A stretch of DNA of 64,000 bases from NCBI GenBank assembly GCA_031258545.1, contig JAIRMU010000019.1, forward strand, positions 70,219 through 134,218, in the 5' to 3' direction. The stretch is from Puniceicoccales bacterium. GTDB taxonomy: Bacteria; Verrucomicrobiota; Verrucomicrobiia; Opitutales; UBA9783. Below are positions 1 to 47,820 of the stretch, piece after piece. The position numbers and the translations under genes were made by a program. Every line of letters begins with the position of its first letter. Position 1 is the first letter of the stretch. Under the pieces are notes generated by a model, which was not told the origin of the DNA, did not search any database, and saw only the letters and a program-made list of their open reading frames with translations.

Positions 1-3000
1 ATACCCAGCGGATTTAAAATGATATCCACCGGTGTCCCATCGGCTAAAAAAGGCATATCCTGCATGGGTACAATTTGAGCCACAACCCCTTTGTTGCCAT
101 GACGACCTGCCATTTTATCGCCCACCTGAATCTTACGCTTTACGGCGATGTAAACTTTTACATTTTTAATGGTACCCGTTTCCTCGCCCTCTTCTTCAAC
201 GTGTCGAATTTTTGCTTCGTACTCTTCGTCCAAAAGTTCAAAACGTTTCTTGAATTGATTTAAAATTTCAACAATCTTAACTTTTACGGGAGATTGGTCG
301 ATCTGTAAACTGTCGGGAGCCGAAGCCAAACGGCGTAGCAAAGTTTTAGTAATTTTACGATTCGCCGGAATAATAATTTCACCCGTCCCCTGATGGATGA
401 TGTTCAAGGGTATCTTTTCACCCAATAAAATATTGGATAAGGCTTCCGTTAATTCTTCGCGCAAACGTTCCTTTGAAGCCCTCTGCTCTTCCGTAATTTT
501 CTTAAGTTTGCGACGATAATCCACCGTTTCGACGGACTCTTCTTCATCTTCCTTATCGGCATGCACCGATGTTCGGACATCCATGACGATCCCCGAGCAA
601 CCCGGAGGTGCAATCATTGAAGAATCTTTAATATCGGCTGCCTTTTCGCCGAAAATGGCCCGCAATAATTTTTCTTCCGGCGCCAATTCGGTTTCGCTTT
701 TGGGTGTAATCTTACCCACCAAAATATCCCCCGGATGCACCTCAGCACCCACACAGATAATACCGTTGCGATCCAAATTTTTAAGCGCTTCCTCGCCCAC
801 ATTGGGAATGTCACGCGTAATCTCCTCTGCGCCCAATTTTGTATCGCGCGCAGTCACTTCAAATTCCTCAATGTGGATGGACGTAAAAACGTCTTCCTTG
901 ACGAGACGCTCACTTAAAATAATGGCATCTTCAAAATTGTAACCATTCCAAGGCATAAAAGCAACCAAGACGTTGCTACCCAATGCCAATTCACCGTCCC
1001 GCGTTGCGGCACCATCCGCCAAAATTTGACCTTTCTTCACCACGTCCCCCAAACGCACCAAGGGCCTTTGATTAAAACAGGTGGTTGCATTGGAACGAAC
1101 AAATTTGTACAAATTATAAACGTAAATGCCTTTCTTGTGATCCGTCTTCAAATGCTTATCCATCCGCAATGGCAAAGTCCCACTCGTTGCAACAACAATA
1201 TGTTTTCCGTCAACTTCGACGACTTTTCCGTCCGCTTCCGCAACCACCACGGTGCGAGAATCTTGAGCCACCTTAGCCTCAAGGCCCGTTCCCACAAAAG
1301 GCGTTTGGGCTCGCAGCAATGGAACTCCTTGACGTTGCATATTCGATCCCATCAAAGCGCGACTCGCATCATCGTGTTCAAGAAATGGAATCAACCCTGT
1401 GGCAACGGAAATCAACTGCTTTGGAGAGACATCCATATAATTAACTTCCTTGGGATCCACTTCAATCACCTCAAATCTTTTACGCGCCGTAATTCTTCCT
1501 TCCAAACGACCTTCTTTGTTGACGAAAGAATTGGCCTGCGCAACGATCACTTGCTCTTCCTGATCCGCCGTTAAATAATGAACTTCATCGGTCACTATCC
1601 CCTTCTTAACCACCCTGTAGGGCGTTCCGATGAAACCAAATTCGTTGACGCTTGCATACGTCGTCAATGAATTGATTAAACCAATGTTGGGGCCTTCAGG
1701 CGTTTCGATGGGACATATGCGTCCATAATGGGAAGCATGCACATCACGCACTTCAAACCCAGCCCGATCGCGGTTTAATCCTCCCGGTCCCAATGCCGAC
1801 AAACGACGTTTATGCGTCAACTCGGCCAACGGATTAATTTGATCCATCAATTGCGATAATTGACTGCGCGCAAAAAAGTCACGCACAACGGTGGCCAAAG
1901 CTTTGGTATTCATCAAACGCTGCGGCGTGACGGCATCCACCGTTTGATCGTACAATGCCATGCGCTCTTTCACAATGCGTTCCGTACGCGACAACCCCAG
2001 ACGACACTGATGATATAGTAACTCTCCCACCGGACGTACTCTACGACTTCCCAAATGATCGATGTCATCCACCACGCCATTGCCTTTTTTCAAACTGCAC
2101 AAATAGCGCGTTGCCTGAACTATGTCATTGGGTTGCAACAAACGTTTAGACAAGTTAACATTTTCACCAAATTTTTGATTTAAACGATAACGCCCCACAC
2201 GTCCCAAATCATAACGTTTTTCATCAAAAAATAATCTTTTAAATAAATTTTTCGCGTTCGCCAAAGTCGCCGGATCTCCCGGACGTAAACGTCTAAAAAT
2301 ATCCCTCAACGCCTCTTCTTCATTGGGCACCGTATCCTTTTTCAAACAACGAATAATGGCCCCTTCATCCACACTGCTGTCCACAATCCATACGGTTTCA
2401 ACGTTGGACTGAGTAAACGCTTGCAGTACCGTTTGCGTAACAGGCTCAAATGCACGTGCCAAAACTAATCCCTTGGTCGCATCAATCACGTCTTCAACCA
2501 AAATGTACCCCGTCAAATCTTCTTTTAACAACAATACCTGGACGGATACTTTTTCCGGTGCATAAAAAAGCTTTAAAATATCCATATCACTACTGAACCC
2601 AAGCGCGCGTAGGAATGTGGTAACCAAAAATTTACGACGGCGGCGACGACGATCCAGATAAACGTACAATAAATCGTTGGGATCAAATTGTACCTCAATC
2701 CAAGTTCCACGGTCAGGAATAATGCGGAAGGAATGCAGTACTTTGCCCGTTGTATGCGCCTCTTGTTCAAAACAAATACCGGGCGATCTGTGCAATTGGC
2801 TGACAACCACCCTCTCCGCCCCATTAATGATAAAAGAACCTCTTTCGGTCATCAATGGAATTTCACCCATATAAATTTCACTTTCCTGAATGGATTCTTC
2901 AGCCTTGAGCCGCAAGGTTACATACAGGGAAACGGAATAAGTATTGCCCTCTCTAATGCACGTATAGTCCGATTGCTTCGGTTCCATAAGCTGATAGGAT

Positions 3001-10857: not shown

Positions 10858-11045
10858 CGGCCTATGCATACAATAATTTGAATCAAACATAAAACTCTAA
10901 TAACATCAAGTATGTATCCTCAAATTCATCAAAAGGCTCTTTGTTGCAGTGCCTAATCTCTCCAAAGCACGAATCATTTTCCTCATGCGGCATGCGTTAC
11001 TTAATTTTGATTTGTAAAACAAAAAACCTAAAGTAGAATAAATGC

Positions 11046-11677: not shown

Positions 11678-12451
11678 TTATAAGACGTCGTGCGGATTTT
11701 CAAAACCCATTTTATGACAAGACTTATGGACAAATGGTAAAGAATGCCGAGCGCCTGTTTGTCGGTTAGCAGTATTTACGAAAAAGCCTCCCATTCTCTC
11801 GGATGTGGCAACATCGCCACCCTTACTCTTTGCCATATTGATGCACATAATTAGAGCGTTCTCATAATCATCCATCGATCCGTATAAATTAAGCCAACCA
11901 AGATATTCATATCCTTTCTCACTCACGACTACTTTTGCCTTAGGATCATCTGATATATCATCATTGAAATTCTGAACACAACATAGCGATTGTACGGGAT
12001 TGAATTGTGGACAAATAGAAAAATCTTTCGGATCTATCCCGTTAATAGTTGCCCAGCCCTCTGTTGGCTCACCTTGCTTGATAGCCAAAGCACCTTCCGC
12101 TGATATGGTAACAGCTCCACCTTTGGCTCCTATGGCACAATTTAGTAAATTTAAAATAACCTCAAAATCATCTGCCGATCCATGTAAATCAAGCCAATGT
12201 AAATATTGAAAAACCCCCACGTATACTTCTCCTCCTTTGTCCCACTCAATCGGTTGATACATTGGGCAATGCGAAAGTACATGTGTTCTACCACACTCAG
12301 GACAATATCTTGTACCGTTCTTGGGGCAACAAAAACTGGGATCGTCTGGATGTTCCTCGTTACAAACCTTACAATGCCAAGCATTTAAGTTTACGGTTCC
12401 CATCATGAAACCCACTGTTGCTATTGTTTGAATCACATTTTTCATATTCAT
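11678..12451 (-). CDS. Hypothetical secreted protein: signal peptide, Cys-rich zinc-ribbon-like segment and an internally duplicated domain
   Basis: N-terminal MNMKNVIQTIATVGFMMGTVNLNA. CKVCNEEHPDDPSFCCPKNGTRYCPECGRTHVLSHCP. Two related ~40-aa units (FQYLHWLDLHGSADDFEVILNLLNCAIGAKGGAVTIS / YEYLGWLNLYGSMDDYENALIMCINMAKSKGGDVATS). No family recognised. Confidence 0.6.
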   Translation of the reverse strand: MNMKNVIQTIATVGFMMGTVNLNAWHCKVCNEEHPDDPSFCCPKNGTRYCPECGRTHVLSHCPMYQPIEWDKGGEVYVGVFQYLHWLDLHGSADDFEVILNLLNCAIGAKGGAVTISAEGALAIKQGEPTEGWATINGIDPKDFSICPQFNPVQSLCCVQNFNDDISDDPKAKVVVSEKGYEYLGWLNLYGSMDDYENALIMCINMAKSKGGDVATSERMGGFFVNTANRQTGARHSLPFVHKSCHKMGFENPHDVL

Positions 12452-12695
12452 ATAACCTTTCTTAATTAATGATCAGAGAAAAGAGGCTTTCAAACAATTC
12501 AATGTATGTTAACATAAAAATCAAACTTTTTTCAACATCAACAAATTAAAACCGTAACCTTATATTTTGGATTTTACTTGCCGACGGTCTAGTTATCATC
12601 CGAAATGCCAGTTACGATCATTCAACGACGTATGCTAAAAATCCCCTCGACACTATTCTACAAATCATTTTTTCATGACGTAAGCATCGCCCCTT

Positions 12696-14480
12696 ATGAT
12701 TGCTAATTTGCATTTCCGTCGCATCCGCCTAAAATTTAACCCAACGTTACAAAAAAAACAACAAGGCAGTTTAATACTAAGTGTTATGCTGTTAAGTACA
12801 CTTGGTGCCCTCGTATTCATCTACACCCACAAACAAAATTCTCTGTACAGACAATGGAAATTCAGAATACGTACACTCCAAGCAGAAAAATTAGCCTTGT
12901 GGACCTGCCATCACGCGCTTAAGAAATTGTCGAAAAGGGCTACCGTTGATACCCTGGCCACATACGATGATGAAAATTCATCCCTGCCCATCGTCCAATT
13001 TTATGACACGTTGAATGGTAACCGCCTAAAACCCATCGTATCCAAAGGTGAATCATCCATTCGGGTCAATATCGATAAAAGTAAACACCATCCCCTAACG
13101 TTACCCCTGGAACAAAAAACAAACAACATTGCAGTGGCTTACGGCGTAATTGAAGGCAACCTTCTCAAAAATTATACCAACAAAATCCCAATTTGTAATG
13201 CAAAACAGGGAGGCTTACGTGAACTTTTTGGTGAAGCAATTCACAAATCACCTCCCAAGAATTTTCCAGGCCCAGAAGCATTATGGAATAAAAACCGTCA
13301 AAGATTTCTAAATCTCGAAGATATCCATCAACCCTTAAGCACCATGAATGGATTTCTCCCCGTTTTACTTCGTTCTAATTTAACACTGACTGAACAAGAA
13401 ATCACCGTAAAAAACCTCTGGTGGAACCCCTATGATCGGGCTTTGGAGGGCACAATGGATTTTCGAATTACACTTGTAATCAACTCAGAGAGTGGACATG
13501 CCTCCATCCATCGTACATGTAATCAAACCATACACATAAAACCTGGAGATGTGCGTCGGAATGATATCACTTATCCGACTACCGAGCTCCAGGATAAAAA
13601 AAATATTTTTCTCAATAACCTACAGATTCAAACGGGTACCTCACATCATTCATGCACGTATCACATGGATCATATTCCGTGTGATTGCTTACCAAAAACG
13701 CTTATAATATCTTTAAATATCGATGCGCACTGCGATTTCCACGCCATTAACTTATGGCCATCCCACAATGAGATTCCTACCACAGCACCTTCTGGCAAAC
13801 GGCCTGGATGGAAAAAATCTAAACCATCGGCACCTCGGGTGCAGTCAACATCTTTGTGGGTATCGGACGAAACTAAAGACTTTTCTTTTTTATCAAAACA
13901 AACACCCTATTTGACCCAAACTCCTTTTCAACGTATGCAAGCTTGCTTTTTAAAAGAGGAACAAATACCGTACGCCTGCATCGGCTGGCCAAATTCAGCG
14001 AAAACACATCGCATCAGGGCTTACAATCAATTTTTCTGGGATTATTTCTATTGTGATCATGTCATGCCACTCCTGAACGTAAACACCGTATCTGACGACT
14101 GGGCCATGCACTTCGAAAATGTTTTTAAATCACTAGGATGTGCGCACAATACCGCAGACTTAGAACATTTCATAAAAAAATTGCAGGGGCAGGTTATAAA
14201 AAATAGACCTTTTTTATCCGTAGAACAATTTATTCAATCGGGTATTTTGCAGACAACACTCGATGAAATAGATGCATTTAAAAAAGTTCGCCAAAGCGAT
14301 GTACTCTCTTATCTAAAAAATCCTTTGGCGGTCCGCTCCGAATGCTTTGTCATCATTGGCACTGCCGTTGTAAAACATGATGGCGAAACTGTTCAAAAAA
14401 CCTGCAAAATGCTTGTCCACCGCGAAGCTTCAGACGCGACAAAACGTCTATGGGTAGTCGATGGTATTACATGGCTGTAA
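12696..14480 (+). CDS. Hypothetical membrane-anchored protein, weakly GspK (T2SS minor pseudopilin)-like
   Basis: Pseudopilin-like N-terminus KKQQGSLILSVMLLSTLGALVFIY, LNVNTVSDDW (cf. GspK xNxNTA), C-terminal ...RPFLSVEQFIQSGIL...LAVRSECFVIIGTAVV. Resemblance is by eye only. Confidence 0.4.
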   Translation: MIANLHFRRIRLKFNPTLQKKQQGSLILSVMLLSTLGALVFIYTHKQNSLYRQWKFRIRTLQAEKLALWTCHHALKKLSKRATVDTLATYDDENSSLPIVQFYDTLNGNRLKPIVSKGESSIRVNIDKSKHHPLTLPLEQKTNNIAVAYGVIEGNLLKNYTNKIPICNAKQGGLRELFGEAIHKSPPKNFPGPEALWNKNRQRFLNLEDIHQPLSTMNGFLPVLLRSNLTLTEQEITVKNLWWNPYDRALEGTMDFRITLVINSESGHASIHRTCNQTIHIKPGDVRRNDITYPTTELQDKKNIFLNNLQIQTGTSHHSCTYHMDHIPCDCLPKTLIISLNIDAHCDFHAINLWPSHNEIPTTAPSGKRPGWKKSKPSAPRVQSTSLWVSDETKDFSFLSKQTPYLTQTPFQRMQACFLKEEQIPYACIGWPNSAKTHRIRAYNQFFWDYFYCDHVMPLLNVNTVSDDWAMHFENVFKSLGCAHNTADLEHFIKKLQGQVIKNRPFLSVEQFIQSGILQTTLDEIDAFKKVRQSDVLSYLKNPLAVRSECFVIIGTAVVKHDGETVQKTCKMLVHREASDATKRLWVVDGITWL

Positions 14481-14489
14481 TTTGATCCA

Positions 14490-15227
14490 TTAAGGTGACG
14501 CAGATGTATCCTCAGACTTTAGGTAAAGCCGATGCTCCTGTAACGCAATTTCCAAGTAGGCCACCGCAAAACAAATATTGGCAATTGTGGCACAAAATTT
14601 TGCATTTGCCATCCCAACCAAAGCGTACCATAGGGCACACATACTCAAACAAACTTGAGGAATTGCGCGGTTCATATCCCGCCTTACCATGGCAAAATAA
14701 GGTGCTAAACAAATAAGAGGGAAAGCCCACAATGAAGCGCCTCCTGCAGCTAGGCCGGCATACAGCATCCCGAGCGCTATGAGCACAATGGGTTCCTTCA
14801 AAAGGGCCAACAACAAAGGTGTCAAAGAACGCGTACATTTTATTTCTTTTAAAATTTTTTCAAAACTCGGAAGTGCATCCAAAATGCCTTTGTTGAGTCG
14901 ATGGGCCATGAGTAAATTTGCGAAACCAAAACAAACACTGCAAATGAAACCTACAAAAGCCTCGTTGATCATCGCAAATAGAGCCACCACCAAACAAGCG
15001 TATCCCATCATTTCCAATCCCCAACAGGGATTGTTGCCAGCTTGCTGCAAAACACCCCAAAACCCTTTCAAATTTTTTCGCGAACACGTAGCCGGCCAAC
15101 GACTCAAGATGATGAATACCAACGTCATTAACATAACCACAAAGGCCAATGGGCTGACCAAAGCAAAAAGACACGTGTTGCCCAGGGCAAAAAAAGTTCC
15201 CGGATCCCTCAAAATCAAACGAATCAT
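14490..15227 (-). CDS. Hypothetical multi-pass membrane protein
   Basis: 245 aa with about 6 hydrophobic segments; longest ORF at the locus. Competing alternative-frame ORFs look non-proteinaceous. Confidence 0.55.
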   Translation of the reverse strand: MIRLILRDPGTFFALGNTCLFALVSPLAFVVMLMTLVFIILSRWPATCSRKNLKGFWGVLQQAGNNPCWGLEMMGYACLVVALFAMINEAFVGFICSVCFGFANLLMAHRLNKGILDALPSFEKILKEIKCTRSLTPLLLALLKEPIVLIALGMLYAGLAAGGASLWAFPLICLAPYFAMVRRDMNRAIPQVCLSMCALWYALVGMANAKFCATIANICFAVAYLEIALQEHRLYLKSEDTSASP

Positions 15228-38252: not shown

Positions 38253-39449
38253 TTATACTCCCCGTGCTCGACGAATAATTTCCTTTGTGGCCGCTTCCAA
38301 CGTATCACTGGTAACCAAAGGTAAAGCGCTTTGGCGTAAAATTTGGTGAGCACGTTCAACGTTGGTACCTTTCAAACGAACCACCATCGGCAGGTGTAAT
38401 GCCGTGGATTGGGCGGCCGTAACGATTGCTTCCGCCAACAGATCGCACCTTAAAATACCACCAAAAACGTTGATGAAAATGCCCCTAACGCACGGATCTT
38501 TTAAAATAATTTTGAAAGCTTTTTGAATTTGTTCTGCGCTGGCACTACCGCCCACATCGAGAAAATTGGCAGGTCGACCTCCAAAATGTTGGATCATATC
38601 CATGGTTGCCATCGCCAAACCGGCTCCATTCACCAAACAGGCGATATCGCCATCCAACGCAATGTAGTTTAATTTCGCCTTTGCCGCCTCAACTTCCTTG
38701 GGATCCTTTTCATGATCATCGGTCCATTTCCCGTAATCTTTATGGCGAAACAGCGCATTGTCATCCAGTTGGATTTTTGCATCTAATGCCATTAAATGTC
38801 CATCTTCGTTCAAAACCAAGGGATTAATTTCGACCAGCAGGGCATCCGCCTGCATAAACAACCGATACAAATTTTTAAGCAGCTGTACGCATTCGGGAAA
38901 AACTTCGGGAGCAAGTTGAAGGAAGAATGCTGCGTGACGTGCCTGAAAATCGGTTAATCCCACCAGTGGGTCGATCAAAATTTTCAAAAGCTTTTCCGGA
39001 GACGTTTGGGCCAACGTTTCAATTTCGGTACCGCCTTCCGCCGATGCGATCAGGACGGGGCAATAATGTTCGCAGTCCACCAGGATGGAAACGTAAAATT
39101 CTTGCTGAACGCGAATGCCTTCCGTCAGATAAACTTTTCGAACGCGTTTGCCTTTGGGACCCGTTTGTCGCGTGACGAGGGTATGACCCAACATGGCATG
39201 GATGCTTTCATGCGCTTCTTGCTTATTTCTAGCACATCGAACACCTTTGCAACCGTTTTCGACAAAACAACCTTGGCCGCGTCCACCCGCATGGATTTGC
39301 GCTTTTACGACGATCATTTTGCCTTCCCCAAAAGCATTTAAAGCTTTTTCGACAACGTCCGGTTGGCAGGACTTGATGCAAATACCTTCGGGGGCAGGGA
39401 TTTGGAATTTTTTTAACAAAAGCTTTGCCTGGTACTCATGAATATTCAT
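38253..39449 (-). CDS. sucC: Succinate--CoA ligase subunit beta
   Basis: [15 protein letters not shown]... (Met-27 of the track ORF), ATP-grasp, ...[10 protein letters not shown]. Overlaps the rpoN stop by 14 nt. Confidence 0.95.
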
Positions 39450-40815
39450 ACGCATCATATTTTCTGCGCAGATTGGTGGGAGGAATGCACAATAGTTCGC
39501 GATACTTCGCAACCGTTCTGCGGGCAATCTTCACATTTTTCTGCGCCAAAATTTCAACAATCTTCTGGTCACTGAGAGGTTTTTTCTTATCCTCCTGCTC
39601 AATAACTTTTTGAATTTGTTGTTTTATGATAGTATTAGCAATAGAGTCTCCCGAATCCGAATTCAATCCCTTTGTGAAAAAATATTTAAAATCAAATATG
39701 CCGAAGGATGTTTTTATAAATTTGTTTGCGACGGCGCGACTGACGGTGGTTTCATGAATGCCCAAATCTTCTGCGAGCGACTGAAGTGTTAGCGGCTTCA
39801 AATGCTTGGGGCCCGCTTCAAAAAAATCTTTCTGCTTGTCCAGGAGGGCATAGGCAATGCGCTCGATTGTTTTTTGACGATGCAGGATAGATTGGATAAG
39901 AAAGCGACCCGAACGAATTTTGAGCCGTAAATAATTCTTATCTTGATGATTGACGGAAGCATCGGACAGTAAATGTTCGTAGGTATTACCGATGCACAAA
40001 CGTGGAATATAGTGATTGTTGAGGTCCACAACCCACTCGTGCAGATGATTTTTATAGATGGCAACATCCGGAATAATACCTTGTGTGTGGTGAACCTCAA
40101 ATCGACGTCCCGGCGCCGGATCTAGCTTTGCAATTTCTTCGATGGCGCTTTGAACGGCATCGCAGGAGATGGACAAACATCGAGCTATGTCGATTACTTT
40201 GTTGCGCAGCAGTAGGTCGTAGCATTGATCCAATATTTGAAAGGCCACCGAAGAAGTTTTGTTCTGGATTTTCAATTGCTGCAACAGGCAAGTGCGTGGA
40301 CCATCGCAACCGATTCCGGGAGGATCCAATTGTTTTAAAACGGCGATGGCCGTTTGAATGGTTTCGGGGTCGGCTTTTGTCTGTTCTTCAATTTTGGGCA
40401 AAGGTAGGGTTAAAAATCCCTTTTCATCGATGCTGCCGATCAAAAAACGGACGACATTTTCGACTTCGGAGGCAACATCCAAAAAACCTACTTGCTCGTA
40501 CAAATGATCCTGCAATGAAATTTCGGATGCGAGTGAATTCATCAGAAAATCGTGTTTGCGGCTACGGGCAATGGCATTGGCTTTTGAATCGGGAGCAAAC
40601 TCGTTGTAATCTTCCCAACGATCTTCGGCACTCCCGGGATCATCCAGGCTTACCTCATCCAAAGGTAATTCCTCCAGCGTCGGATTCATCTGAAGCTCTT
40701 CCAGGATAACGTTGCGCAGGTCCATGGCCGAAACTTGTAGTATTTTCAAAGATTGCCTTAACTGAGGCGCAAGCAATTGCGATTGCGTCTGAATCTGCTC
40801 CATTCGCTGAACCAT
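39436..40815 (-). CDS. rpoN: RNA polymerase sigma-54 factor
   Basis: N-terminal Q/L-rich region I (QTQSQLLAPQLRQSLKILQ), HTH, exact RpoN box ARRTVAKYRELL. Confidence 0.93.
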   Translation of the reverse strand: MVQRMEQIQTQSQLLAPQLRQSLKILQVSAMDLRNVILEELQMNPTLEELPLDEVSLDDPGSAEDRWEDYNEFAPDSKANAIARSRKHDFLMNSLASEISLQDHLYEQVGFLDVASEVENVVRFLIGSIDEKGFLTLPLPKIEEQTKADPETIQTAIAVLKQLDPPGIGCDGPRTCLLQQLKIQNKTSSVAFQILDQCYDLLLRNKVIDIARCLSISCDAVQSAIEEIAKLDPAPGRRFEVHHTQGIIPDVAIYKNHLHEWVVDLNNHYIPRLCIGNTYEHLLSDASVNHQDKNYLRLKIRSGRFLIQSILHRQKTIERIAYALLDKQKDFFEAGPKHLKPLTLQSLAEDLGIHETTVSRAVANKFIKTSFGIFDFKYFFTKGLNSDSGDSIANTIIKQQIQKVIEQEDKKKPLSDQKIVEILAQKNVKIARRTVAKYRELLCIPPTNLRRKYDAYEYS

Positions 40816-40913
40816 GTTTTCATCATACTACAAGCCATAAGCAATGAAAAGAAAATTCTGATATTTGCCGCCATTGAAGGATGCGGTAGCCGTCTTGGAT
40901 GCGTGGTAAAATT

Positions 40914-41061
40914 ATGATATTTCATCAAGTTTACCCCAAAAATATGCTTTGATAATTTAAGCACAGCCGTCTTGGAAGCGCCGCTTAGGTTGTTGGGGAA
41001 CCATCGATCACCCGCTTCGCCCCATCCTCCGTTGCAAACTTGCGCCTAAAATAAACTTTTT
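40914..41061 (+). repeat. Inverted repeat, left copy (IR-L), immediately upstream of the translocator-like gene
   Basis: ATGATATTTCATCAAGTTTACCCCAAAAATATGCTTTG...CACAGCCGTCTTGGAAGCGCCGCTTAGGTTGTTGGGGAACC...CCGTTGCAAACTTGCGCCTAAAATAAACTTTTT aligns with the reverse complement of 43450-43598 (roughly 85-90% identical by eye, one small indel). Confidence 0.88.
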
Positions 41062-41182
41062 AAAAATATGCCCCAAGTAATTTTACCATTAAAGAAATTT
41101 CGAAATAGGTCGAAATTAATTACATACGTGGCAAAATCGCAATGATACGTTGCATAATATGAAATAAGATAGAAGGAAATTT

Positions 41183-42070
41183 ATGAGTACACCAGATATT
41201 AATAGTCTGCAAAGTTACGGTAATGGTACCTATAACGTAGCATTTGACGCCAAAAATGACGCGAAAGATGGGACTTATACGGTCACAAAGGCGGGCGATT
41301 CCTATACGATCAGTAAGGATGGAGTTGCGCAAGTTTCAACCGGTAATTTTAGCGAGGTAAGCAGTTTTTTTGCAGAGGGAGAGGTGTCGAGTATTTCAAC
41401 ACCGAAAACACCCGTTACAAGTCCCGCCAGTAAAATTATCACGGACGATGATATTCGCGCTCTAATGAATTTGCTATTGAAGGCCTTTACATTGATGATC
41501 AATGCACAACGTCAAGGGGATCTCAATGACATGCAGGGGGTACTCAACGCCTTAAATACAAAATTGGAAGCCATGGAAGAATCCAAAGACGCCGCCTATA
41601 ATGCGGCCGTAAAGCAGGCGGTCGGCCAGATGGTATCCGGTGCATTTACGATTGTGGGCGGTTGTTTTCAGGCTGGGGGAGCAATGAAGGGAACAGTTAA
41701 AACTGGTGGTGAGCCTATCCCAGTAAATGATGCAACTGGGAATGGTGGACAGGTTGCTGGAGTCACGCCTGAGGTAACAGAAGACTTTGGGGCAGTAGGT
41801 GCAGGATGGTCAGGAGTTTCCCAAGGATGCGGGACAATGTCACAGGCGGCATGTAGCCTTGATGCTGCATCGGACACCAAAGAACAGCAGGAGGCCGAAA
41901 TCGACAAGGAGCGGGCCAATTCGCAATTGGAATTCTGGAAACAGGGAGAATCAATGGACGAAAAATCCATGGATTCCTTCTTCAACTTTTTGAAAACAAT
42001 TCTCGCCATGTTGCAGGAATACAGGCAAAACGCCGCCAATACGGAGCAAAGCATTGCCCGGATGTCCTAA
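41183..42070 (+). CDS. Hypothetical protein with T3SS translocator-like (SctB/YopD/EspB-class) architecture
   Basis: 295 aa, no Sec signal, Ser/Thr-rich N-terminus. Coiled-coil segments flank one Gly/Ala-rich hydrophobic segment (AVGQMVSGAFTIVGGCFQAGGAM). Amphipathic C-terminus (SFFNFLKTILAMLQEYRQNAANTEQSIARM). Adjacent to the T3SS operon. Architecture only, no motif match. Confidence 0.35.
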   Translation: MSTPDINSLQSYGNGTYNVAFDAKNDAKDGTYTVTKAGDSYTISKDGVAQVSTGNFSEVSSFFAEGEVSSISTPKTPVTSPASKIITDDDIRALMNLLLKAFTLMINAQRQGDLNDMQGVLNALNTKLEAMEESKDAAYNAAVKQAVGQMVSGAFTIVGGCFQAGGAMKGTVKTGGEPIPVNDATGNGGQVAGVTPEVTEDFGAVGAGWSGVSQGCGTMSQAACSLDAASDTKEQQEAEIDKERANSQLEFWKQGESMDEKSMDSFFNFLKTILAMLQEYRQNAANTEQSIARMS

Positions 42071-42110
42071 GGTTTACCCCGATCCCACGCATTCAAAACT
42101 TAAAACCGTC

Positions 42111-42345
42111 TGCGGGGGATCGTTTTGGAGGAAAATGTCTAGCGGTTTTTACGGGACATCAAAAAGCCTGAAGCCGACGCCATAAACACCGCATCAGCCT
42201 AGACACCGGCCCCTCCCTTCGGAGCAACCCTTACCTTCCCCGGTGGGGTTCCAAAATGTGTTCCAATTCCTGAGATTTTACCGCCAAGAGTACCAACAGC
42301 GGGTGCTGGGTTTCTCCTCTGAGGGCAATCATTTCCAGCAGCTTA
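42111..42345 (+). repeat. Direct repeat copy 1 (3' end of the Cys-cluster gene plus its downstream region)
   Basis: GGGGGATCGTTTTGGAGGAAAATGTCTAGCGGTTTTTACGGGACATC...CCGCCAAGAGTACCAACAGCGGGTGCTGGGTTTCTCCTCTGAGGGCAATCATTTCCAGCAGCTTA recurs at 43661-43892 (about four-fifths identical by eye). Confidence 0.85.
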
Positions 42346-43400
42346 CTCTTGAGGCGAAGGAGCTCTATCTGATACCAACCCAAGGGATGAATGGGTGTAC
42401 TCGGCAAACTATCCCTATCGACATATCTATAAATCGGATTGTGCCAGTGTATGAGCGTACTTGTGAGGAACACGTTAATGGGGTCCTCCTCTCTCCTGGG
42501 TACTTGCATGACGTTGAGGAACCAGGTGTGAAACCGATCCCTGACGTTGTCAAAATCGTATTGGGCAAAACCCGTTTGAAAGAGATGCCCGCAATCAATG
42601 CCGACGTAACAGCGGTACAGGTTGACGGTGCGCAAAAATGTTTCGAAATTGATCTGGGCTGCGTTTCTTGGATCGCAGGCATCCATGAGCATTTCCGCGA
42701 TGGGTCGCACAAAATACCTCTGCAGGGTATTGGCCACCTCCCGCAGCGAAGAGGCGCGAAATGTATCGTAGAGGTATTGCACTATCTCGTCCCCCATTTC
42801 CGCCTTAAAATAAAATTTGGCCGTATCTTTCTTGGGCCACCACTCCGTACAAGCCCAGATACCACACGTACCAATAAACATCATGGTGTTAAAGCAACAA
42901 CCAAGATCATATTCGTTAGAGGAACAATCGCAGCAGCAGGCCTTCCAGGCGGGTGCACCGCAGTAGCAGCACTTCTTAATTTCAGCCCTTTGTTCAGCAT
43001 TTAAAAAACTCTCGTAACCAAAATCCTTAAAGTTTCTGGAAAGCCACACCCCAGGTTGGCGGCAAAATTTATTGGCTTTCCAACATCCCAAGAAAAATGG
43101 ATAAACCCGGACGTTCCCTCGCAGGAGAAATGAGGTATCCGCCCAACCTTGCGTACCACCTTCAAACCCGAGTAGACCGCCGCCGCCGTGTTCTGCGTAA
43201 ATGTTACCCATGTCCTCCGTCCATTTGTCGAATAGGCGGATGTAGTTTGCGGCCACTTGGGGATCGCTGGAATTGGCTTGAAAAGCCTGAAAAGCCCGGT
43301 TCAAATCTCTAAACCTATCCGCCCGAAGAAGAGGCGTATGCCATAACATGGCATGCGTAAGCGCCAATGCGCCTAGGAGTACCAATTTTTTTCTCATCAT
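42231..43400 (-). CDS. Hypothetical secreted protein with a dense cysteine cluster
   Basis: Signal-like MMRKKLVLLGALALTHAMLW. 11 Cys within 41 residues (CCYCGAPAWKACCCDCSSNEYDLGCCFNTMMFIGTCGIWAC, 42849-42971). 389 aa. Preferred over the 253-aa antisense ORF. Confidence 0.7.
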   Translation of the reverse strand: MMRKKLVLLGALALTHAMLWHTPLLRADRFRDLNRAFQAFQANSSDPQVAANYIRLFDKWTEDMGNIYAEHGGGGLLGFEGGTQGWADTSFLLRGNVRVYPFFLGCWKANKFCRQPGVWLSRNFKDFGYESFLNAEQRAEIKKCCYCGAPAWKACCCDCSSNEYDLGCCFNTMMFIGTCGIWACTEWWPKKDTAKFYFKAEMGDEIVQYLYDTFRASSLREVANTLQRYFVRPIAEMLMDACDPRNAAQINFETFLRTVNLYRCYVGIDCGHLFQTGFAQYDFDNVRDRFHTWFLNVMQVPRREEDPINVFLTSTLIHWHNPIYRYVDRDSLPSTPIHPLGWYQIELLRLKSKLLEMIALRGETQHPLLVLLAVKSQELEHILEPHRGR

Positions 43401-43449
43401 AAGAATTTCACTCAGTTAAAATTCACCCACCTCTCCTTTTTATGCAAGC

Positions 43450-43598
43450 AAAAAGTTTATTTTAGGCGCAAGTTTGCAACGGATGCCGTGGACGAAGCGG
43501 ATGATTGACGGTTCCCCAACAACCTAAGCGGCGCATCCAAGACGGCTGTGATTAAATTGCCAAAGCATATTTTTGGGGTAAATCGGATAAAATGTCAT
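43450..43598 (-). repeat. Inverted repeat, right copy (IR-R), immediately upstream of the Cys-cluster gene
   Basis: Reverse complement ATGACATTTTATCCGATTTACCCCAAAAATATGCTTTGGCAATTTAATCACAGCCGTCTTGGATGCGCCGCTTAGGTTGTTGGGGAACC...CCGTTGCAAACTTGCGCCTAAAATAAACTTTTT matches IR-L. Confidence 0.88.
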
Positions 43599-43660
43599 AC
43601 CCCAGCTACGTCTCCAACCGCTTGGGCACGATCGGAGATTAATAAAACCTAACGGCGGCC

Positions 43661-43892
43661 TGCAGGGGATGGTTTTGAAGGAGAATGTCTAATGGTTTTT
43701 ACGGGACATCAGAAAACCCGAAGCCTGCGCCATAAACACCGCCTAAGCCTAAACACCGGACCTCCCTTGGGGGCAACAATTACCTTACCCGGTGGGGTTC
43801 AAATTTATTACAAGTCTCGAGATTCTACCGCCAAGAGTACCAACAGCGGGTGCTGGGTTTCGCCTCTGAGGGCGATCATTTCCAGCAGCTTA
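43661..43892 (+). repeat. Direct repeat copy 2
   Basis: Aligns with 42111-42345 in the same orientation. Confidence 0.85.
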
Positions 43893-43897
43893 TGCTT
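43808..43897 (-). pseudogene. Orphan 3'-terminal fragment of a paralogue of the Cys-cluster gene
   Basis: Encodes ...KHKLLEMIALRGETQHPLLVLLAVESRDL*, versus ...KSKLLEMIALRGETQHPLLVLLAVKSQELEHILEPHRGR* at the end of 42231-43400. Upstream homology is lost at ~43900. Confidence 0.65.
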
Positions 43898-44052
43898 TGT
43901 AAGGCTAATCCTTTTGCACTCCCTACGCGGGCGAGAATTAAAGGAAGCGGCAGCCGTCTTGATCTTCCGCCAAGGTAAAGCATCCAAAGTACTTAAGGGA
44001 GCCCCACCCCAGGGCATATTTCTGCACTCCATTCAACCGCAATAATTTTTTG

Positions 44053-44081
44053 TTTACATCGGTTTATTTCCTCATTATAGT
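44053..44081 (+). promoter_or_regulatory. Candidate sigma-70-type promoter of the T3SS operon
   Basis: TTTACA (44053-44058) - 17 nt - TATAGT (44076-44081). It would give a very short leader before ATG 44093, so it is uncertain. Confidence 0.25.
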
Positions 44082-44092
44082 TGATATGTCTC

Positions 44093-45604
44093 ATGGACTC
44101 GCAAGAAACCAGCCAAGCCGAAAACCAAGGGCCAGACAATGCCGTAACACAAGGGCCGGATGTCGCAACGACGGATAATGCCGCAACAAATGATGCCGCA
44201 ATCGACAACGCTGCACCCGACAATGCCGCCTCAACACCCGCAGGTCAGCTTGTTTTGCGCGTATTGTCCGGACCTCACAGCGGCGCAGAAATTGATCTGC
44301 AGGAAACCGCCATCGTTATTGGTAAAGAGGCCGCCTGCGACGTGGTCCTCATCGACCCAGCGCTCAACGATCAACACATCAAAGTATTCCTAAAAGATAG
44401 CAAAATCAACCTGGAAGTCCTCAATGAGTCTCACGTGATCGTGGATGGGGCCCGCGTAACGGGTACCACCGTGCTCCAAAGATTTCAAGCGGTTGTCATC
44501 GGCTCAACGCTGCTATCCATGGGCCCCAACAACGTTACCTGGCCCACCATCTCCGCCGACCAAAAACCCACACAAGAAACACCCGCAACACCCCAAAACG
44601 AATCGACGCCACAACAAGAGATACCCCCCGCTACACCCCCACCCAACGAACCCCCAGTCGTCGATAATACCCATAAAATAAAAATTAAAAAGTATATCAT
44701 CGCCGGAAGCTTAGCCTTACCCGTACTGCTGATCTTCATCGCAAGCTTATTTTCTCCAAAAGAATCCTCCGAATCCAATGAACCCAACAAACCTACATCC
44801 AAGTTATCCACCTATAACAAAACTGCCATTCTCAACATTTTGCAAAAAAACAATATCGACCCCCATAATATCATCCTAGAAGATAAGCAAAATGTGTACG
44901 ATTTGACCGTTTACGTCGAAACCAATATTCACAAACAAAATCTACAAAAAGCATTATCCCCCATACCTTTCAAAAAATTACGCATTTATTCGCAGGAAAA
45001 TTTACTTATTCAAGCCCGGGAAGTGCTAAAAAAATTCAAAACCATTTCCGCTTCAAAAGCAGTCGAACTCAATTCCATCGCACTTCAAGGCTACCTGCAC
45101 GCCATTGACAACCTGCCGAATATTAAAAATCAACTTTTCTCGGACATTGTCGGCCTAAAATCTATTCAAACGGCCATACTTAGTCCCGATGAAGTTTACG
45201 ATATGGCATCAAACTTGCTTACACAGTACGGATTAATGGGACTTCTAAACATACAAACCATCGAATCTGGAATTCTCGTATCCGGCAGTATTCCTACGAA
45301 AAACGAACCCATGTGGAAAGATGCCCATAAAGCCCTTAAAAACATTTTTAGCGGCACCTGCCAAATTCTTACACACGTTGCCGTATTGCCACCGCAATCC
45401 GTAAAACGCTCTTTCTTCAAATCACCCATTGCTTCCGTCTCCATTCCAAAAGATGGTGTTCCGTGGATTGATCTCCAAAACGGAGAACGCTACTTTGAAG
45501 GAACCACTTTACCTTCGAGCTACGTCATTCAATCCATCACGCCGAGTGGCATTATTCTTAACAAAAACGAAGAATCCATCAATTTCACCCTCAACGAACT
45601 ATAA
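44093..45604 (+). CDS. sctD: T3SS inner-membrane ring protein SctD (YscD/CdsD/PrgH class) with N-terminal FHA domain
   Basis: FHA-like LVLRVLSGPHSGAEIDLQETAIVIGKEAACDVVLIDPALNDQHIKVF...VIVDGARV. Pro/Thr linker, single TM YIIAGSLALPVLLIFIASLF, ~270-aa periplasmic part. Track ORF starts at TTG 44081; first ATG is 44093. Confidence 0.8.
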   Translation: MDSQETSQAENQGPDNAVTQGPDVATTDNAATNDAAIDNAAPDNAASTPAGQLVLRVLSGPHSGAEIDLQETAIVIGKEAACDVVLIDPALNDQHIKVFLKDSKINLEVLNESHVIVDGARVTGTTVLQRFQAVVIGSTLLSMGPNNVTWPTISADQKPTQETPATPQNESTPQQEIPPATPPPNEPPVVDNTHKIKIKKYIIAGSLALPVLLIFIASLFSPKESSESNEPNKPTSKLSTYNKTAILNILQKNNIDPHNIILEDKQNVYDLTVYVETNIHKQNLQKALSPIPFKKLRIYSQENLLIQAREVLKKFKTISASKAVELNSIALQGYLHAIDNLPNIKNQLFSDIVGLKSIQTAILSPDEVYDMASNLLTQYGLMGLLNIQTIESGILVSGSIPTKNEPMWKDAHKALKNIFSGTCQILTHVAVLPPQSVKRSFFKSPIASVSIPKDGVPWIDLQNGERYFEGTTLPSSYVIQSITPSGIILNKNEESINFTLNEL

Positions 45605-47044: not shown

Positions 47045-47803
47045 ATGAATTGGAAATCCAGTTTTTCTCTCGTAGCATTGTTTATTTGTGGGTGTAGTCA
47101 ACAAGCCCTGTACACGGGACTGCCAGAAAAGGATGCCAACGATATGGTTGCTATTTTGCTATCCAATCAAGTCAATTGCGATAAAGTCTCGGGAGTGGAA
47201 GGTACCTGGAATATTGTGGTCGATAAAAACCAATTTACGGAAGCCGTCAGCCTACTCAACGAAGTAGGTTATCCTAAAGACAAATTTAGTTCCCTGGGAG
47301 ACGTATTTAAAAAGTCGGGCCTCGTATCCTCACCGCTTGAAGAAAGGGCCCGCTTTATGCATGCCCTATCGGAACAATTGGCCGAAACTTTAACGCACAT
47401 CCACGGTATTGTAACGGCACGTGTTCACATCGTCCTTCCCGACAACGACCCCTATTCGGCCAAAATATTACCCTCATCCGCCTCCGTTTTCATCTCTTAT
47501 CTACCTCAGGTGAATCTAGACGACTGTGTCCGCGACATACGTCAGCTGATAACCAACAGCATCGAAGGTCTTACGTACGATAAAGTCAACGTCGTATTGT
47601 TCCCAGCAACCAATCCCAAAGAACGCTTACCACTCAATTTGTCCACTCAAAAAAATTCGTATACAACCGTTCTTTCCATGAAAATCGCCAAAGATTCCGT
47701 GCTTAAGTTTTGGTTTTTCCTTGGTACTCTTTCCGTAAGCGTGATAGTCATTCTCGGTGGCACAATCTTCTTCCTGAAACAAAAACAATCCTCTCAAAGT
47801 TAA
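47045..47803 (+). CDS. sctJ: T3SS inner-membrane ring lipoprotein SctJ (YscJ/PrgK/EscJ)
   Basis: Lipobox LFICGC, LYTGLPEKDANDMVAILLSNQV, GDVFKKSGLVSSPLEERARF, GIVTARVHIVLP, NSIEGLTYDKVNVVLFP, C-terminal TM. Confidence 0.9.
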   Translation: MNWKSSFSLVALFICGCSQQALYTGLPEKDANDMVAILLSNQVNCDKVSGVEGTWNIVVDKNQFTEAVSLLNEVGYPKDKFSSLGDVFKKSGLVSSPLEERARFMHALSEQLAETLTHIHGIVTARVHIVLPDNDPYSAKILPSSASVFISYLPQVNLDDCVRDIRQLITNSIEGLTYDKVNVVLFPATNPKERLPLNLSTQKNSYTTVLSMKIAKDSVLKFWFFLGTLSVSVIVILGGTIFFLKQKQSSQS

Positions 47804-47820
47804 CGCATGCTCAATTCCCT

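Follow-up and report, generated by a model that had tools for sequence, protein, structure and literature searches.

Inverted repeat arms at the boundaries of a gene pair beside a type III secretion locus of Puniceicoccales: a probable breakpoint-associated duplication

Site-specific invertible switches (fimS/FimBE, hin-hix, the invertible promoters of Bacteroides, shufflons) are bounded by near-perfect repeats of about 9-30 bp and depend on a dedicated tyrosine or serine recombinase, the gene for which usually lies close by; inversion relocates a promoter or exchanges coding ends. RecA-dependent flip-flop is known between long inverted repeats such as rrn operons, copies of insertion sequences (IS) and duplicated genes. 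The regulon boxes of type III secretion systems (T3SS), such as the hrp box, the tts box and the ExsA sites, are short elements found ahead of numerous operons and effectors. Inversion breakpoints may carry inverted duplications of formerly single-copy sequence, and may be reused (Ranz et al. 2007, PMC1885836). Here we describe an inverted repeat in a 64-kb stretch of DNA (contig JAIRMU010000019.1 of GenBank assembly GCA_031258545.1; hereafter the window, to which all positions refer) from the metagenome-assembled genome (MAG) of an uncultured bacterium of the Puniceicoccales (Verrucomicrobiota). The two arms of the repeat enclose a pair of convergent genes, called here geneA and geneB, between rpoN and the T3SS gene sctD. 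We favour, with a probability of roughly 0.6, the explanation that the repeat is a lineage-specific inverted duplication located at both breakpoints of the geneA-geneB cassette, which was flipped during the divergence of close Puniceicoccales genomes.

Geometry of the arms and orientation of the cassette in relatives

When the region 40800-44100 was compared with the whole window by BLASTN, the left arm (IR-L, 40913-41061) aligned with the right arm (IR-R, 43599-43450, minus strand) over 150 columns with 88.7% identity (E 8.6e-50), and no third copy of the arm was detected in the 64 kb. In the global alignment 133 of the 150 positions were identical. The 17 differences, including one 1-nt indel, were scattered over the whole length of the arms (11% diverged), and the longest exact runs measured 34, 25, 22 and 15 nt. 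A repeat finder split the same pair of arms into 110 nt at 88% and 34 nt at 100% identity. IR-L ends 121 nt before the ATG of geneA (41183, plus strand), IR-R ends 49 nt before the ATG of geneB (43400, minus strand), and each arm points toward its gene. These results agree with the original prediction, made from the letters of the window, of an end-to-end inverted repeat of 85-90% identity with long identical blocks, whose arms lie 50-120 nt before two start codons and are aimed at them. The statement that the two genes are convergent and unrelated was likewise correct (BLASTP E 0.19). The arms are described by the following features:

IR-L: 40913-41061, plus strand; 149 nt, the junction upstream of geneB copied in inverted orientation and located between the rpoN flank and the native upstream region of geneA; absent from the sister L010
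34-nt block: 41028-41061, plus strand; identical in both arms, comprises most of the conserved geneB upstream core CCGTTGCAAACTTGC...AAAATAAACTTTTT
IR-R: 43450-43599, minus strand; original arm, with the geneB leader on the inside and the end of the sctD spacer on the outside, both contiguous in relatives

The edges of the repeat are sharp. The similarity of the 60-nt outer flanks was matched by 690 of 2000 shuffles, that of the inner flanks by 463 of 2000. A repeat longer than 150 nt was rejected: the flanks are about 65% alike by eye, yet not above the shuffled expectation. The junction between the rpoN side and IR-L was confirmed by an independent Logan contig (L018). An A-rich pentamer (AAAAT or AAAAAT) flanks IR-L on both sides, and no terminal inverted repeats were seen in the arm unit by inspection. 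The sequence AGCCGTCTTGGA, which occurs three times in the window, was considered as a recombination site and dropped, because it is not conserved in relatives.

Orthologues of geneA were found with 57-66% amino acid identity in six sister MAGs or contigs, in which rpoN is 92-94% identical, and with about 47% identity in a more distant clade. In L001, L004, L005, L007 and L013 the gene order is sctD(-), geneA(+) geneB(-), rpoN(+); in the window and in L010 it is rpoN(-), geneA(+) geneB(-), sctD(+). That is, geneA-geneB is inverted as a block relative to rpoN and sctD between the five sisters and the window. Each orientation is backed by a second, independent Logan assembly (L002, L003, L006, L011). 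In BLASTN comparisons with the inverted relatives, the rpoN flank of the window aligned to the minus strand and stopped at 40880-40902, the cassette aligned to the plus strand from exactly 41062 to about 43485, and the sctD flank aligned again to the minus strand from 44030 on. L010 and L001 differ by a clean inversion with the same limits. The inversion breakpoints coincide with, or adjoin, the arms of the repeat.

In a neighbour-joining tree built from 6.2 kb of flanking genes, the window and L010 were sisters (98% bootstrap), L001, L004 and L005 formed a clade (100%), and L007 stood apart. Since the tree groups the window with L010, one inversion suffices to explain the distribution of the two orientations. 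The structure of the junctions suggests that the window descends from the opposite orientation.

Composition of the arms and age of the duplication

The proximal and distal parts of the arm have different sources. On the proximal side the homology between the cassette and every relative continues through the 49-nt geneB leader into the first ~36 nt of IR-R. These 36 nt, together with the GCTTGCA that follows, form the most conserved non-coding block upstream of geneB in all relatives; AACTTTTTGCTTGCA does not vary, and CGTTSCAAACTTGC hardly varies, among L001, L004, L005, L010 and the window. At its distal end the arm carries 43 nt (TTATCCGATTTACCCCAAAAATATGCTTTGGCAATTTAATCA) with about 79% identity to the sequence that lies directly upstream of the geneA upstream region in L007 and L001, a similarity reached by none of 500 shuffles. 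In these two relatives the counterpart of the distal arm adjoins the sctD spacer, and beyond IR-R the homology of the window to the end of the relatives' sctD spacer extends for about 40 nt more (alignment judged by eye). IR-R consists of a part derived from the geneA upstream sequence (43549-43599) and a part belonging to the geneB upstream sequence (43450 to ~43548). At the level of homology these alignments identify IR-R as the native 5' region of geneB, with an old inversion junction inside it. The homology of IR-R to relatives continues past both of its ends, and both junctions of IR-L are novel, with the rpoN flank on one side and, at 41062, the geneA upstream region on the other; IR-L is therefore the copy.

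The first ~27 nt of the geneA upstream region (41062-41088, AAAAATATGCC...ACCA) constitute a third, older and more diverged copy of the motif found in the distal arm. The presence of the ~27-nt motif on both sides looks like the pattern that would be expected from a staggered break at an earlier inversion.

Self-BLAST of each equivalent locus in L001, L004, L005, L007, L010, L012 and L013 revealed no comparable inverted pair. In L010 the rpoN flank and the geneA upstream region are joined by ~34 unaligned nt, as opposed to 210 nt, including IR-L, in the window. As the repeat is absent from sisters of both orientations, it did not drive those inversions. The same non-coding and geneA sequences are 72-78% identical between the window and L010, compared with 88.7% between the arms. 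The arms are thus more alike than the two genomes, which dates the duplication after the split of the window from L010, unless the arms were homogenised or selected.

Beside IR-R a second repeat was found, a direct one that the original prediction had not noted:

tail1: 42090-42350, unstranded; geneA-geneB intergenic region and the last ~120 nt of geneB, source of tail2
tail2: 43636-43899, unstranded; direct 86% copy of tail1 with a geneB 3' pseudogene fragment, in the spacer upstream of sctD, ~36 nt beyond IR-R

The copied length is 236-262 nt, and tail2 was not found in any relative examined. The identity of the two tail copies (86%) is close to that of the arms (89%), suggesting that IR-L and tail2 may be of similar age. 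Within tail2 an open reading frame (ORF) of 74 amino acids (43808-44032, minus strand) has a C-terminus that copies that of geneB. In the distant clade, L012 contains a 65-nt direct copy (86%) of the 3' end of geneA (10916-10980 versus 12573-12633) within its geneB-sctD spacer, a stray copy of the same kind and in the same place as tail2 of the window.

Origin of the repeat and alternative explanations

The breakpoint-associated duplication that we favour would have arisen in two steps. An inversion would first have created the junction between geneA-upstream and geneB-upstream sequence and, through staggered breaks, left the ~27-nt inverted duplication. Later a second event, of the copy-paste type and confined to the window lineage, would have struck these fragile junctions again and added IR-L and the 262-nt tail2, possibly through a template switch via A5/T5 microhomology at AAACTTTTT|AAAAAT. 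By this route geneA would, perhaps incidentally, have acquired the larger part of the upstream core conserved before geneB, at 121 nt from its own ATG. With their exact blocks of 34, 25 and 22 nt the arms could support rare re-inversion of the RecA type.

Several points weigh against this explanation. The simple staggered-break model predicts an arrangement of the form b-e' ... b'-e, whereas the composite arms observed here are exact mirror images; therefore no single staggered inversion made them, and one must assume that copying took place as a separate step. Of the whole structure, the ~27-nt motif at 41062-41088 alone agrees with the staggered-break model. The copying step was not uniquely reconstructed: a one-step staggered break and several schemes of tandem duplication followed by inversion were tried, and none of them yielded the two arms plus tail2 unless extra deletions were assumed. 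No significant match to the ~65 nt in the middle of the arm was detected anywhere; by position they correspond to the geneB upstream DNA of relatives. The distant outgroup clade (L012, L016, L017), whose geneB homologue is 24% identical (E 5e-22), has the orientation of the window relative to sctD, which leaves the polarity of the inversion unsettled. The searches for further copies and for recombinases cover 64 kb of the source genome only. Finally, the 34-nt core is identical in both arms and the remainder differs by about 15%. Calculated by hand, the probability of this is ~0.005 with drift in both copies and ~0.08 with constraint on IR-R only, which leaves room for selection on IR-L.

The original prediction had proposed, as one of two readings, that the arms bound a 2.4-kb segment capable of inversion. 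The evolutionary part of this proposal stood, as the same segment is inverted in five sisters; a sign of ongoing switching was not seen, and the repeat is confined to the window genome. That the arms serve an active RecA-type flip-flop of 41062-43449, with both orientations coexisting in the population, is in our view improbable. The occurrence of the segment in both orientations among sister species speaks for it, as do the exact blocks of 34, 25 and 22 nt, some of them at or above the ~25 nt that RecA-type pairing would call for, and the repeated structural change at the locus (tail2, the 65-nt direct duplication in L012, the replaced 5' part of geneB in L010). However, frequent recombination or gene conversion would not leave arms of 88.7% identity with scattered differences, one inversion on the tree accounts for the distribution, with genomes of either orientation lacking the repeat, and a 168-kb MEGAHIT-style contig passes straight through both arms. 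Moreover, a flip leaves the upstream sequence of each gene unchanged. The segment contains the geneA upstream region (41062-41182) and the 49-nt geneB leader, both arms carry the same core, and the flanking genes are divergent either way. As neither orientation separates the two genes from their own upstream regions, there is no promoter for a flip to connect or disconnect. No recombinase or transposase was recognized by Pfam in the ~38 of 44 window ORFs of at least 170 amino acids that were scanned, in keeping with the original prediction, nor in the gene tables of the related loci; seven of the scanned ORFs were without any Pfam match. The six ORFs outside the Pfam scan include sucC, sucD, sctN and the genes in the sctQ position, which were identified via their orthologues in related loci. 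A bolder version, in which the repeat is a newly born, recombinase-independent orientation switch, would have the geneA-geneB pair flip recurrently in these Puniceicoccales, the duplicated core keep both genes expressed, and the flip alter interference with the divergent rpoN and sctD promoters; we regard it as highly improbable. The notion that a small mobile or dispersed repeat, of the miniature inverted-repeat transposable element (MITE) or repetitive extragenic palindrome (REP) type, landed on both sides of the cassette and so gave the two arms would account for the sharp boundaries and the A-rich pentamers at IR-L. It is largely refuted by the finding of only two copies in 64 kb and of none in the relatives' genomes beyond the orthologous geneB site, by the absence of terminal inverted repeats on inspection, and by the homology of parts of the arm to local single-copy sequence in relatives. 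A mis-join at the repeat, giving a spurious orientation or a spurious second arm, comes to mind because this is a metagenome assembly and Logan contigs (k=31) break inside the repeat, and we give it next to no credence. The longest exact repeat, 34 nt, is far below the k-mer of 119 that appears in the contig names of two sister assemblies (the same k being assumed for the source contig), and the arms differ at 17 positions. Two Logan contigs of the source run, L018 (ending at 41057) and L009 (41032-42308), show 100% identity to the window, and for each orientation in relatives there are two concordant assemblies. L018 and L009 stop within the 34-nt exact block and within the tail repeat, as a 31-mer graph must, and are silent on orientation polymorphism.

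The other reading of the original prediction was a duplicated promoter or operator that co-regulates the two genes with the T3SS. It stood in so far as IR-R contains the geneB core and IR-L copies most of it before geneA; a consensus promoter and a recurrence across the T3SS were not found. Accordingly phrased, IR-L would have been kept because geneA thereby shares the promoter, operator or leader of geneB, so that a translocon-like protein is co-regulated with a Cys-rich partner. We consider this possible and rather doubtful. Upstream of geneB no non-coding block is better conserved across five relatives than the proximal arm, both copies are aimed at their genes, geneB is intact only in the window genome, and the perfect identity of the 34-nt core (P 0.005-0.08, as calculated above) is a weak hint of constraint on IR-L. 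On the other hand, the edge of IR-L cuts the most conserved block, AACTTTTT|GCTTGCA, leaving the copy incomplete, and geneA still has a conserved upstream region of its own (121 nt), which suffices in six relatives without IR-L. The arm's distal third comes from unrelated sequence upstream of geneA, which marks the arm as a rearrangement junction and not a module. No promoter, terminator or sigma-54 site was detected in the proximal arm, the core lacks a match to the consensus of sigma-70 or sigma-54, and sigma-54-like matches in the window occurred at chance level (33 observed, 36.5 expected). Neither strand of the arm folded better than shuffled sequence (z-scores from -0.56 to +2.05), Rfam gave no match at E up to 1, and the covariation analysis that had been proposed as a check for RNA structure was negative (covariation term +0.2, one compensatory pair). 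Further copies upstream of other genes, also suggested originally, were not encountered: in a fuzzy motif search of the window and of eight related loci of 8-21 kb the core was present only at the geneB-upstream sites and in IR-L, and a degenerate core pattern hit only the orthologous geneB site in the whole assemblies of two relatives. Judged by this distribution, the core is a putative geneB-specific element that was copied once, not a T3SS regulon box.

The locus and comparison with known systems

The genes and intergenic regions around the arms are the following:

rpoN (sigma-54): 39436-40815, minus strand; left flanking gene, outside the cassette (TIGR02395, E 1e-117), 92-94% amino acid identity in relatives
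rpoN-side flank (R): 40816-40912, unstranded; kept in all relatives until ~40869-40902, where homology ends (left breakpoint)
geneA native upstream region (U): 41062-41182, plus strand; accompanies geneA in every genome, homology to relatives starts exactly at 41062
geneA: 41183-42070, plus strand; 295 amino acids, fast-evolving, with sub-threshold matches to translocon families
geneB: 42231-43400, minus strand; 389 amino acids, signal-peptide-like N-terminus, dense Cys cluster
sctD-side spacer (S): 43900-44092, unstranded; strong homology to relatives from 44030, weaker from ~43900 (right breakpoint region)
sctD: 44081-45604, plus strand; FHA-type inner-membrane ring protein, first gene of the T3SS operon (TIGR02500, E 4e-32)

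The true start of sctD is likely the ATG at 44093, as judged from an alignment. The locus tags at geneA-geneB are LBF43_03975 and LBF43_03980. To the left of the cassette lie rpoN, sucC and sucD, all on the minus strand. To the right, genes for SctD, a YscE-like protein, CdsG/HrpB1, SctI, SctJ, SctL, SctN, HpaP and FliP/SctR were identified, and the T3SS adjacency on which the original prediction had relied is thereby established.

The matches of geneA to translocon families were all sub-threshold (SseD, E 8e-6; SctB, 3e-5; SseC, 8e-3), and a profile of geneA homologues had no sequence match in the PDB. The geneA product is 57-66% identical among genomes in which SctN is 97%, SctJ 94% and RpoN 93% identical. 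Such fast evolution fits a host-exposed secreted or translocon protein. Family searches with geneB gave no match. The geneB gene is intact only in the window, and that of L013 is intact across the available part. It is disrupted by two in-frame stops in L001, a frameshift and a stop in L004, two frameshifts in L005 and one stop in L007. In L010 the first ~250 codons have been swapped for a version that is 23% identical, and the last 136 amino acids are 71% identical.

Within the distant clade, L012 (4206-5636) and L016 (206-1636) encode a response regulator that depends on sigma-54 (Response_reg, Sigma54_activat and HTH_8 domains). It adjoins export genes of the sctS/T/U type (Bac_export_3/1/2) and lies ~4.4 kb upstream of geneA. 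This regulator and the position of rpoN next to the T3SS locus of the window are hints of a sigma-54 control of the T3SS; no sigma-54 consensus site stood out.

Some further features of the window were recorded. An ORF of 254 amino acids without family match (47710-48474, plus strand) lies between sctJ and sctL, the SctK-type position in other systems, and its equivalent is split or shortened in several relatives. ORFs of 182-779 amino acids without Pfam match at 1e-5 are located at 12696-14480 (plus), 19393-21732 (minus), 60034-61905 (plus), 11678-12451 (minus), 14490-15227 (minus) and 1026-1574 (plus); these could encode lineage-specific or effector-like proteins. The GC content falls to 0.31-0.34 at 27001-29000, in an ABC-transporter ORF, versus ~0.43 elsewhere.

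If the breakpoint-associated duplication is correct, the locus provides a clean, nucleotide-level bacterial example of a reused inversion breakpoint region that gained duplications, among them a junction copied to the opposite breakpoint. In this group of uncultured Verrucomicrobiota the T3SS locus is very conserved apart from the geneA-geneB pair beside sctD, which changes fast, and geneB is decaying in most lineages. Should an active switch or a rewiring of geneA prove true, the locus would illustrate how function can arise from a rearrangement scar. For the present, the finding is mainly of use to annotation and to studies of genome rearrangement.

With the site-specific switches this locus shares a segment bounded by inverted repeats, located next to surface or secretion genes, whose orientation varies between genomes. 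It differs from them in that the arms are 150 nt long and 11% diverged, no recombinase was found in 64 kb, and the upstream sequences are unchanged by a flip. The imperfect long inverted repeats, with exact blocks near the minimal pairing length, resemble those of RecA-dependent flip-flop, and inversion is possible in principle; here, however, only one genome has the repeat, in one orientation, and arms so short and diverged imply that rates would be low. Like the T3SS regulon boxes, the core is a conserved upstream element before T3SS-adjacent genes, but its occurrence is limited to the geneB site and, in the window genome, one copy before geneA. The arrangement also resembles the staggered-break duplications (PMC1885836). 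In both, the inverted copies on either side of an inverted segment represent sequence that un-rearranged relatives have only once at the breakpoints, transposons and dispersed repeats play no part, and the same breakpoints are rearranged repeatedly; the ~27-nt motif fits this pattern. In contrast to the cases described there (PMC1885836), the present one is bacterial and small (150-nt arms, a 2.4-kb segment), its arms are mirror images, the large duplication is younger than the inversion that it flanks, and an extra direct duplication, tail2, accompanies it.

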